NCBI GenBank assembly: GCA_951406725.2
Contig: OX597829.1
Coordinates: 34,534,001 to 34,598,000 of the forward strand
Direction of reading: 5' to 3'
DNA length: 64,000 nucleotides
DNA from: Octopus vulgaris
Taxonomy: Eukaryota
The position numbers and the translations under genes were made by a program. Under the pieces are notes generated by a model. The model was not told where the DNA came from and searched no databases. It saw nothing but the letters and a program-made list of their open reading frames with translations. This document shows positions 10,303-17,053 of this stretch, piece after piece (the first letter of the stretch is position 1; every line of letters starts with the position of its first letter).

Positions 10303-11863
<1,561 letters not shown>

Positions 11864-11868
<5 letters not shown>

Positions 11869-12125
11869 TATTATAAAAGGCAGATTTTATCTGCCTCCCT
11901 TTGGGAGTTATACAAATCTACAATATAGGATTTCTTCAATTACAATTTACCTTGCATTTTTAAGAGTACAATGCATTGCGTCATGCCAGCTCCAGTTTTT
12001 AAAATTTAAACTCCAGTTAAGCAAAATTTACAGAAAACTCACATTCTGGTGTGTGTGTCAAATGCTTTTCTTAGTCTGGTTTACACCACACGCAAACGCA
12101 CACACACAGTGGGCAACGAATAAAA
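11864..12125 (+). mobile_element. Helitron-like 5' segment (family B), right arm of an inverted pair
   Basis: Begins A|TCTCTTATTATAAAAGGCAG; reverse complement of 10039-10302 with scattered substitutions. Confidence 0.65.
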
Positions 12126-12378
12126 CGAAACTAATTGACTTACTGTAGTGAGTGATTCTTTCACTCTGCCTCCCACTTCTTCTTTCCACACAGACACGCA
12201 AATATATAAATAAAATTGTAAGCTAACGTGCGTGTGTGTGAATGGGTGGGTGTGGGTGTGCGCGTGTGTGTGTGTGTGAGGGTGCGTGTGTGTGTGTGTG
12301 TGTGTGTGCGTGTGCGTGAGTGTGTGACAGGAAAGTTTTTTTACGACGAATATAATACCTATATCCAAGTAGCAGAAA

Positions 12379-12863
12379 GATAAGACAGTAAGGTGTGATT
12401 TGAGGGAGATTTGGCTGCTATTTCTACCATGTCTAGCTGCCATGTAGGGGTCTCCCTCATAGGCTCATACATACATATATATATACATAGATAAGACAGT
12501 AAGGTGTGATTTGGGGGAAATTTGGCTGCTATTTCTACCAGGTCTAGCTGCCATGTAGGGGTCTCCCTCATAGGCTCATACATACATATATACATAGATA
12601 AGACAGTAAGGTGTGATTTGGGGGAAATTTGGCTGCTATTTCTACCAGGTCTAGCTGCCATGAGGGGTCTCCCTCATAGGCTCATACATACATATATACA
12701 TAGATAAGACAGTAAGGTGTGATTTGGGGGAAATTTGGCTGCTATTTCTACCAGGTCTAGCTACCATGTAGAGGTCCCCCTCATTGGCTCATATATATAT
12801 ATACATACATAAGACAGTAAGGTGTGATTTGAGGGAGATTTGGCTGCTGTTTCTACCAGGTCT
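12379..12863. repeat. Minisatellite, 106-111-bp unit, about 4.5 copies
   Basis: (G)ATAAGACAGTAAGGTGTGATTTG...TTTGGCTGCTATTTCTACC restarts at about 12379, 12490, 12597, 12703 and 12809. Confidence 0.95.
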
Positions 12864-13226
12864 GTTAGGCCTTCTCATGTAAACTCAAGCTTTCTCATGC
12901 CTTCAACATATGACCAAAGCAGAGAATGTATTCTTTTATTCTTCTGCTTTTTCCAGCCATTGGTCTGTGGCCATGCTGGGGCAATGCCTTGAAGAATTGT
13001 AGTTTAATGAATCAACTCCAGTTTTATTTTTGTAAGCATTGTACTTATTCTATCTGTTTCCTTTGTCAAACCACTAGGTGACAGGGATGTAAACAAACCA
13101 ACATTCGTTGTCAAGCAGTGGTGGAGGACAATCACAAGCACAGACATGCACACACACACACACACACACATACATGCATACACATATACACACATACATA
13201 CATATATATATATGTGTATATATATA

Positions 13227-13485
13227 TTGCAGCGTGGAAGGTGTTTGTAAGCCATTTAAGAAACACACAAAAACCGTTACATTCACTTCAACATTTAAAT
13301 TTAATTTGCCAAAATATTTTCGTCGCTTTGAGACCGCCACCTGTTCACTGACAAAAATATCGTGCTAACAGGTCGCGGTCTCAAAGCGACGAAAATATTT
13401 TCACAAATTAAATTTAAATGTTGAAGTGAATCTAACGGTTTTTGTGTGTTTCTTAAATGGCTTATAAACACCTTCAACGCTGCAA
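13227..13485. repeat. Fold-back inverted repeat (119-bp arms, 21-bp spacer)
   Basis: 13227-13345 is the reverse complement of 13367-13485 with a few mismatches. Confidence 0.92.
13305..13355 (-). ncRNA. Candidate variant hammerhead ribozyme (G3-C8 core)
   Basis: Minus strand: UUUGUCA-GUGAACA-G-GUGGC(GGUCUCAAA)GCGAC-GAAA-AUAU-UU-UGGCAAA. Stems I, II and III are in hammerhead order, but the core is GUGAACA instead of CUGANGA. Confidence 0.45.
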
Positions 13486-13647
13486 CTGTTTTCGTTCCAG
13501 CACACGATCTCAGATCAAGTCACTTGCTATGCAAGTACATCTCTGTAACTATATATATATTTATATATATATATATATGTATATTGGTAAAAACAGTAAG
13601 ATAACAAAAGAAAGAAAGAGACCTCAATATTATGTAAATAGAGGAAA

Positions 13648-14042
13648 TCTTTATAGATAAAAGTGAGGTTGTGTGTCTGTCTCCTACGATTTAGATTCCT
13701 AACTACTCCCACATTTTGCGGTGCAGTTTAACCAAAACCGGGTATCTTATAGTCGTGATTCATATCGAGACCGTCTGGGTATTAGCGCGCGTCTACGATG
13801 AGTCTACGATTTATAAAAAAATTTACCATCAATTTTTCCCATTTTTAATCCATTTTTGACATATATAAGGGAAGTAACTCTCTAAAATTTATTATTAAAT
13901 CTCAGAACGTAAAAAGCTACAGTAACACCCCTCCCCCTATGTGGTTAGCCATATTGAGATGGCTATTATACTTTACATCTCTAAAAATGCTTATATAATT
14001 ATTTCCCTTACAAACCCGAGCAACGCCGGGCGATACTGCTAG
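13648..14042 (+). mobile_element. Non-autonomous Helitron (family A), complete
   Basis: Canonical A|TC...CTAG|T termini with subterminal hairpin CCCGAGCAACGCCGGG (14015-14030) and no TSD. Confidence 0.9.
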
Positions 14043-15055
<1,013 letters not shown>

Positions 15056-17053
15056 AACTTAGAATAACTTAGAAAGGTTTTTGGCCAGTATTGGCCCAGG
15101 CCATGTCTAACTTAATAGCACCACCTGGCGAAGTCTTTCAGTTCAGGATTTGGGCACCAAGGCCCATTCGAGCAGAGAGTTATTGTTTGCGGAGACATAT
15201 CCGGGTGTGGATGGTTTGTCCGGTACTGTTTGAAGGAATTTGTCCAAAGACTTCTTGAATTTTGTGTGGTCAGTTTCTTTTTTGACGTGTCCTGGTGTAA
15301 TGTTGAAGAGAGCGGGTCCAATTGAGGTGAAATAGTTGTGCCGTATTGTCGTTATGTGATGCGATTTAGATTTTTGTTGTGGACGGATGGCACGTGGTCC
15401 AAGCCTTGGATGCATTTTGAAGGTGATGCCAACATCATTCGGACAGTGCTGATGGAATATTTTCCACATCATACAGATAATGTAGCGTTCACGGCGTCGT
15501 TGGAGTGAATACAATTTCAGCTTCTCTAGTCTACCCCAGTAGTCAAGGTCTGACATGCCATCTATCTTTTTTGTGATTGACCTTTGGGGAGCTTCAATTC
15601 TCATAATATTTTGTTTTGTGTAGGGAGACCACAGTGGACAGCAGTATTCAAGGTGGGGTCGGGCAAAAGTGGAGAAGAGAAGGATAATAGCGTGGGAATC
15701 TCTCGACTGGAAGGTTCTGAGAATCCAGGAACACATTCTGCGGGCCATGTCAACTTTGCTGCTTATATGTGTAGCCCAGCTTATGTTGTTGTCCACTGTT
15801 ACTCCCAGGTCTCTGATGTTGTTGGATGCCATGAGAATTTCTCCAGAAGGAAGAGAGTATGGGAGTTTCAGAGCGTCCTCCCTTCCAAAGTGGATCAGTT
15901 CGAATTTGTCTTCATTTAGCAACATGTTATTCTTTTCCGCCCATTGGACAACAGCCAGTAGGTCTGACTGAAGGTTTATTCGGTCATCCACGCCATTGAT
16001 GACCTTCTGGAGCTTGGAATCATCAGCGAAGGTTCTGATGTTGCTGTGTTTGATGGTGTCAGTAATATCATTTATGTAGATGATGAAGAGAAGTGGGCCC
16101 AACACAGTGCCTTGTGGGACACCACTGCTGACTTTGGCTGGGCTGGATTTGACTCCTTCGACTACAACATGTTGGGTTCTGTTAGAGAGGAAGCACTTGA
16201 TCCATTGCAGCAGCTTTCCAGTGACACCAATATTGGACAGCTTTCTCAGAAGGATCTTATGATCAACCCTGTCAAAGGCCTTGCTGAAATCAAGGTAGAT
16301 GACATCAGTGTTGGAACCCTCTCCCAAGGCTCTCAAAATGTCATCAAAATGATGCAGTAGCTGCGTCAGGCAATCTCTCCCATTACGGAATCCATGCTGG
16401 TTGGGGTTCAGCATATTATGACTCTCAAGGAAGTGAGTCATACGCGATCTCAGCACCCTCTCAAATACCTTGATGATATGAGAGGTGAGTGAGATTGGAC
16501 GGTAATTCACGGCAAGCGATTTGTTTCCTTTTTGAAAACTGGGACAACAGACTGGGATAGAAGGTCTTCTGGTATATATCCAGCATCCAATGAGTTCCGC
16601 CACAGATTGGCTAGAGGGGGTGCAAGTTGGTTTTGACACATCTTCAAGACACAAGCAGGGAACCTATCGGGACCTACTGCTGAATTATGCTTCATTTCCT
16701 TTATTGCTGCTAAGACATCAGGAGCGCCAAATGTTATGTCCGATAAAGTGTATTGGGGAGTAACATCACTGATACAGCCCAGATCAGTCATATCAGGATT
16801 GCTGAAAACAGAGCAATATTGTTTCTGCAATATTTCTCCCATGGTTTTGGCATTGTCTTGAAGAATACCATTTTCATCAATCAGAGGGCCAACAGTAGAA
16901 CCAGTGACTCTGTGTTTTTTTGCAAATGAAAAGAACACTTTGGGATTGAGTTTGATCTTCTCAATGGCCCAGGCCTCTTCAGCTCTTCGCTGGCTATTGA
17001 TGATAGACATCATGTTGTTTTGGATCATATATGTATTGATGATAGACATCATG
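15056..17053 (-). mobile_element. 5'-truncated non-LTR retrotransposon (CR1/L2-like) with near-intact reverse transcriptase
   Basis: NYRPISLTS, QHGFR, YLDFSKAFDRVDH, SGVPQGTVLGPLLF, FADD, RDLGV and RPHLEYC motifs. One frameshift near 16525 (VVPVFK/KGNKS). Short repeated tail (TTCTAAGTTA on the minus strand). Clade assignment is tentative. Confidence 0.92.

Follow-up and report, generated by a model that had tools for sequence, protein, structure and literature searches.

In the window, a stretch of 64,000 nucleotides of Octopus vulgaris DNA, two inverted arms of 119 nt each (13227-13345 and 13367-13485), 95% complementary and separated by a 21-nt spacer, were present as the first-pass annotation had stated. 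Their identity had been missed: the arms are two inverted, 5'-truncated terminal repeats (pLTRs) of a Penelope-like element (PLE). Copy A (13227..13366, minus strand), which was aligned to the pLTR of an ORF-bearing locus (L142), is truncated at its 5' side about 11 nt ahead of stem I of a hammerhead motif and has a short 3' end, the end type being assigned from the ends found across the family. Copy B (13367..13548, plus strand), delimited by its sequence and by pLTR alignment, lies inverted with respect to copy A and has a long 3' end. The earlier claim that the right arm is truncated inside the hammerhead core was borne out, as copy B starts at A6 (13367); this plus-strand arm is without G3-G5 and without the 5' strand of stem I, and carries a perfect stem II (GUCGC/GCGAC). 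Copy B also includes the first 30 codons of the PLE ORF within the pLTR (13457..13546, plus strand), the translation of which is the N-terminus found at two loci where the pLTR continues into the ORF start (L248 and L249), and a "tail" of about 62 nt (13486..13548, plus strand), present in one arm only and defined by the spacing between the two 3' ends of the family. The fold-back has ordinary PLE insertion anatomy. Inverted 5'-truncated copies and one-sided tails are described as typical of PLE insertions in the available text of an earlier study, where tails measure 30-40 bp (PMC8557442). Here and below, statements on published systems refer to the available portions of the cited papers.

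The minus strand of copy A holds a minimal type I hammerhead motif (13305..13355), recognized from its sequence, its isolated fold and its alignment with relatives. Its core, extra G, stem I, stem III palindrome and triplet read on the minus strand exactly as the first-pass annotation had claimed. The 5' strand of stem I, UUUGUCA (13355-13349), is followed by the core, with G3 at 13348, then U4, G5, A6 and A7, C8 at 13343 and A9 at 13342, and by one extra nucleotide, a G, after A9 (13341). Then come stem II, GUGGC/GCGAC (13340-13336 and 13326-13322), G12 A13 A14 (13321-13319), the palindrome AAUAUU of stem III (13318-13313), U17 (13312) and the 3' strand of stem I, UGGCAAA (13311-13305); motif alignment places the predicted cut between 13312 and 13311. 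All of U4 G5 A6 A9, G12 A13 A14, A15.1-U16.1, H17 and G10.1-C11.1 of the minimal PLE hammerhead are present. C3 and G8 as letters of the CUGANGA core are absent, and the Watson-Crick 3-8 pair is kept as G3-C8. In an isolated fold of the motif, stems I and II formed with first-pair probabilities above 0.93. Among the 85 matches to Rfam covariance models at E<=10 in 11000-16000 of the window there was no hammerhead family; as the letters are also not CUGANGA, the motif escapes standard hammerhead searches, as had been claimed. Matches to Rfam microRNA models were rejected as hairpin or microsatellite artefacts, being under their own thresholds.

The window copy itself is very probably inert, because its stem II contains a G.G mismatch, its partner arm is truncated and lies on the other strand, and its transcript would form a 119-bp duplex. 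The mismatch, at 13338, is the only one in stem II, and this mismatched type of stem II was found at only 32 places in the genome searched (G000). For the full fold-back, the predicted duplex reached -203.6 kcal/mol and the probability of stem II was 0.

The shared element extends on both sides of the arms, into a Helitron-like element, which had likewise been overlooked. When genome G000 (2.8 Gb in 227 contigs) was searched with the left arm, there were 943 first-look candidates, of which 40 were scored and 30 loci fetched. The 29 other top loci aligned over the whole carrier stretch, mostly at 91-99% identity, with shared flanks of about 1.4 kb and about 0.5 kb beyond the arms, up to Helitron-type termini, and both termini were present in 26 of the 30 loci. 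On the basis of this shared body and these termini, the carrier was delimited as a non-autonomous Helitron-like element of about 2.18 kb (11866..14042, plus strand), with TC at 11864 or 11866 as its 5' end and a GC-rich hairpin (14015-14030) followed by CTAG as its 3' end, sitting mostly in TA repeats or TA microsatellites. Non-autonomous Helitrons have a 5' TC, a 3' hairpin with CTAG, no terminal inverted repeats, and captured internal cargo. The carrier is like them in its 5' TC, its 3' hairpin with CTAG and a shared body amid unrelated flanks, and unlike the known ones in that it carries two inverted PLE pLTRs as cargo. Other cargo of the carrier includes a 106-bp tandem repeat of 4.5 copies (12378..12863), the copy number of which differs between loci. 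At one locus (L018), two Helitron-like copies stand head to tail with zero bases between CTAG and the next TC.

The fold-back is therefore a passenger, a PLE insertion within a non-autonomous Helitron-like element. An alternative is that the fold-back is itself the functional unit, either as a MITE-like DNA transposon or as a hairpin RNA with a role in siRNA or editing, its hammerhead look being incidental. The very stable arm duplex and the 943 candidates found with the left arm would suit such a unit. However, the inverted repeats do not bound the mobile unit, as they would in a MITE or fold-back DNA transposon, since the flanks are shared as far as the Helitron-type termini; the inversion points differ among independent insertions; and the same repeat also flanks an RT-GIY-YIG frame. 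We regard this alternative as highly improbable. A non-LTR retrozyme, in which hammerhead-bearing monomers stand head to tail, did not fit either, as the window holds an inverted pair and no tandem array of this unit. Helitron-borne copies are DNA duplicates of one insertion and thus uninformative on selection for the RNA, and we rejected them as evidence of conservation.

The parent of the arms was found through protein similarity. In 28 of 30 loci similar to the GIY-YIG protein P0001, which were chosen by protein similarity alone and include the query's own locus, the GUGAACA motif followed downstream at about 1.0 kb, in the same orientation. At L142, an open frame of 1,025 residues contains a YVDD motif, a CxxxCxxC linker and a GIY-YIG domain that matched Pfam PF01541 at 25.4 bits (cut-off 22.6). 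Pfam RVT_1 gave no match to L142 and a weak match to its relative P0002 (E 0.0042). The L142 protein had 246 relatives at E<=0.001, and the closest of those with a name was labelled Octopus vulgaris, at 57% identity. A motif-ORF-motif arrangement on one strand, with an additional inverted copy, was found at L271, and inverted pLTR copies also occur at L142, L143, L144, L146, L149 and L150. Older ORF copies, as at L154, have the loop II type of the window. The parent is a PLE (EN+, with a C-terminal GIY-YIG), in which an RT and GIY-YIG frame lies between hammerhead-bearing pLTRs. In an 11-row tree built without named references, L142 stood apart from the genome's two Neptune-like families and fell within an unresolved group with L161, L162 and L163; three loci with short frames (L167, L173 and L176) and likewise L194 and L195 were not part of this tree. 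The L142-family protein has a Cys linker, as in the Neptune or Nematis type.

An earlier candidate for the parent, L064, in which a PLE frame lies upstream of the motif, was rejected as a chimera with the frame cut inside GIY-YIG. None of 29 other copies of that type (L066-L094) and none of 16 longer regions (L095-L110) passed a palindromic-motif scan. About 1 kb behind L095 there is one unrelated decayed insertion.

Copies of the family have two alternative 3' ends about 62 nt apart (30 loci inspected). Among 70 records examined, all 30 with exactly two opposite-strand ends, representing 27 distinct loci, combined one long and one short end, and the inversion points varied between independent insertions. 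This organization resembles that of PAc (Poseidon of Anolis carolinensis), in which the hammerhead also lies at the pLTR-ORF junction, targets are also AT-rich, and a tail, explained by two start sites of reverse transcription, likewise results from two 3' ends that lie within the ORF start (PMC11167929). It differs from PAc, as described in the available text, in its tail of about 62 nt, in an ORF that starts about 70 nt past the cut instead of at stem II, and in a protein with a Cys linker (PMC11167929).

Upstream of stem I, the loci L111-L140 have the sequence CTAAC, which resembles a branch point, together with a run of pyrimidines that ends in AG, about 15 nt before the stem; many short copies start near that AG. 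Penelope of Drosophila virilis reportedly has an intron in its pLTR, and the AG before stem I may likewise mark the 3' end of such an intron. At L042 and L063 (G000:C1, about 6,252,000), a pLTR copy adjoins an intron-free frame on the opposite strand, which we take to resemble a dCMP deaminase (motif HAELNA...PCNEC); this frame is possibly a host mRNA copied through a template switch.

The G3-C8 state belongs to the family and not to the window copy alone. A pattern search of G000 for the GUGAACA core with a perfect stem II gave 4,663 exact matches and 0 for a reversed control. Freeing positions 3, 7 and 8 raised the count to 5,096, of which GUGAACA accounted for 91.5%. At the 30 loci inspected, loop II was variable and stem I mostly perfect, and intact family copies retained stems I and II, the extra nucleotide, which is a G, and the palindromic helix III. 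The first-pass annotation had placed the G3-C8 variant in a repeat family and had proposed a check of the consensus for the core and the three stems; the core is the family state, and intact copies retain all three stems. Contigs of the coded organisms B and C, to which this comparison was confined, had identical core letters. In the deepest contig of organism D, which is uncertain, one letter of helix III was changed. At C11.1, U was frequent in contigs from run X7 (64% of depth); the difference table for these contigs omits 13338, a position at which the window departs from the majority of family copies, and the absence of core rows from that table was therefore not taken as evidence. Outside loop II the subfamilies differ little, and conservation within the family is therefore weak evidence of selection.

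Some short copies depart from this state. At L265 and L266, rows of short same-strand copies carry the core GUGAAGA, a decayed variant in which G3 faces G8 unpaired, at a retrozyme-like spacing of about 170-190 nt. The same core was seen at L157.

Related PLE hammerheads provide the reference against which the 3-8 pair can be read. The canonical-core CUGANGA pattern had 457 matches in G000 against 77 for a control, and 20 regions fetched from these matches included two close relatives. At L215, a GIY-YIG fragment that resembles L142 (tblastn 5e-12) is followed after about 370 nt by a C3-G8 motif with nearly identical stems; L206 combines C3-G8 with an identical stem II. A metagenome scan yielded 36 related PLE loci, and at the 18 where the descriptor was applied (the match end being used), with positions 3 and 8 free, 8 held a motif. 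Five of these read C-G at 3-8, two read U-A, and one, at the distant locus L195, has A3 and G8 unpaired; G-C was found in none of the 8. In an alignment of 17 motifs, the 3-8 pair was C-G in 12, G-C in 3 and U-A in 2, and stem II was 96% paired, 4 of its 5 pairs having changed on either strand; this alignment was hand-picked with L195 left out and is favourable by construction, and 7 in-genome rows came through the CUGANGA pattern, so that their C-G state is likewise given by construction. Chance resemblance to a hammerhead in an AT-rich repeat might be suspected from the fact that no Rfam hammerhead family matched the window region, but canonical hammerheads with shared stems lie at the same place behind related ORFs (L215, L206 and L162), and the same descriptor had 0 matches in 100 shuffles; we hold chance to be an extremely remote explanation. 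Since related PLE hammerheads share the layout and read C3-G8 or U3-A8, G3-C8 is a real compensatory swap, and the motif is very probably a PLE-derived hammerhead homologue.

Other families of the genome carry hammerhead motifs as well. In a Neptune-like PLE family with 784-residue frames (L099-L110), 11 of 12 loci hold a U3-A8 motif with the core UUGAAAA and the palindrome ACCGGU (for example, L099 at 4974, plus strand), and families with C3-G8, U3-A8 and G3-C8 thus coexist in one genome. The other Neptune-like family (L095-L098), also with 784-residue frames and about 72% identical to the L099-L110 family, was different in that no hammerhead motif recurred among its fetched regions. The canonical-core matches include at least three further repeat families whose hammerhead cores read CUGANGA, and some of these occur as inverted pairs.

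Much of this anatomy is already known. Metazoan PLE pLTRs hold minimal type I hammerheads (Cervera and de la Pena 2014, PMC4209133; reviewed in PMC6765202), and the location, the extra nucleotide, the palindromic helix III and the opposite-strand pairs are all established features of these. The motif is like the PLE hammerheads described in PMC4209133 in its place in the pLTR, its extra nucleotide between A9 and G10.1, its G10.1-C11.1 pair and its short palindromic helix III, which implies a dimer; copies in both cases are mostly solitary or inverted pairs on opposite strands (PMC4209133). Within the scope of that text, it is unlike them in having G3-C8 instead of C3-G8 or U3-A8, a G at the extra position, where the published PLE consensus has H, and a 7-bp stem I (PMC4209133). 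The extra nucleotide after A9 had been likened to that of a viroid hammerhead. It is indeed present, and one extra nucleotide after A9 is shared with the CChMVd (+) hammerhead, which has an extra A10 (PMC3705267, PMC1636495), but it is not peculiar to viroids, since an extra nucleotide is the norm in PLE hammerheads (PMC4209133). Unlike the motif studied here, the viroid ribozyme is of type III with a canonical C3-G8 (PMC3705267, PMC1636495).

Covariation at 3-8 in nature is not new in itself. U3-A8 is known among PLE hammerheads (PMC4209133) and among natural hammerheads more widely (Perreault et al. 2011, PMC3088659), which are like the present family in this natural covariation (PMC3088659). 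U3-A8 would require two transitions by way of a U.G wobble, and G3-C8 would require two transversions by way of unpaired intermediates. In the available text of PMC11167929 and PMC3884650, G3-C8 is described only as a laboratory mutant. The engineered C3G/G8C core of PAc has the same G3-C8 letters as the family, and what was a laboratory mutant there is the natural family state here (PMC11167929). No natural G3-C8 hammerhead was found in the literature searched, of which the coverage of key hammerhead papers was incomplete, and no report of octopus PLE hammerheads was found in it. What appears to be new, and is well supported by the comparison of sequences, is a natural G3-C8 version of the PLE minimal hammerhead as a candidate ribozyme.

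Whether intact motifs of the family cut is a separate matter, and our analysis makes it somewhat likely that they still do. C3G/G8C partly restored cleavage in the lizard PLE hammerhead, dependent on the element's protein (PMC11167929), family motifs folded in isolation formed stems I and II, and tandem motif copies that could form dimers exist (L271). The swap, the extra G and the 10-nt palindrome predict a slow or dead ribozyme. PLE minimal hammerheads cleave poorly even as dimers (PMC4209133), and in CChMVd a change of A10 to G, at the place of the extra nucleotide, is strongly detrimental (PMC3705267, PMC1636495). The 10-nt palindrome could pair A13/A14 with U17/U1.1, giving a duplex of -3.8 kcal/mol versus -0.2 kcal/mol for the 6-nt helix, and stem III was absent from the predicted dimer minimum.

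The family motif could instead be a hammerhead descendant that no longer cuts. Its fold (stems I and II with the 3-8 pair) would then serve the PLE protein as a signal for binding or for folding, or would simply have been handed down in a family that is young and expanding. Copy ends showed no excess at the predicted cut, with 118 there, 105 one base upstream and 201 one base downstream, as would be expected from a motif that does not cleave; of 30 copies inspected at the cut, 10 still had the motif upstream, and the remaining 20 included several inversion junctions or decayed copies. The swap, the extra G, U17 and the long palindrome all suggest low activity. Cleavage is also dispensable for PLE insertion in vitro, which was unaffected in hammerhead mutants (PMC11167929), and many Naiad PLEs expand without hammerheads (PMC8557442). 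On the other hand, both partners of the 3-8 pair changed by transversion to another Watson-Crick pair, U4, G5, A6, A9, G12-A15.1, U16.1, G10.1-C11.1 and the palindrome remained unchanged, and drift after a loss of function is not expected to rebuild exactly this tertiary pair. Taken together, we consider a non-cutting descendant rather unlikely.

The explanation that we favour, and consider fairly likely, is an inverted pair of truncated PLE pLTRs that spread within a Helitron-like element, the hammerhead of the parent PLE being swapped at 3-8 and predicted to cut slowly as a dimer. Going by published PLEs, reverse transcription would begin within the ORF start at either of two sites, spaced by about 62 nt, so that one arm comes out long and the other short. 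Where a transcript is tandem (pLTR-ORF-pLTR), its two motifs would pair through AAUAUU to make stem III, and the dimer would then cut after U17, probably aided by the element's protein; the family G3-C8 motif would probably do so slowly. The window copy presumably takes no further part and would be an inert passenger. A bolder proposal, which we put forward tentatively and with some doubt, is that a recently active animal retrotransposon family fixed the double transversion from C3-G8 to G3-C8 and still self-cleaves, so that catalysis by PLE hammerheads would be under selection.

The window locus itself is ordinary, a decayed passenger, and the interest of the finding lies in the family. The role of PLE hammerheads is at issue because they are poor cutters in vitro and dispensable in the sole reconstituted system. 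A family in which both tertiary 3-8 partners are swapped, together with C3-G8 relatives in the same genome, amounts to a natural experiment, and a comparison of single and double revertants would separate selection on catalysis from selection on the fold. CUGANGA-based searches undercount hammerheads, and at least 4,663 copies were missed in the present case. If the family is still self-cleaving, it would represent a natural, high-copy G3-C8 ribozyme and a hidden class that escapes both CUGANGA descriptors and Rfam.
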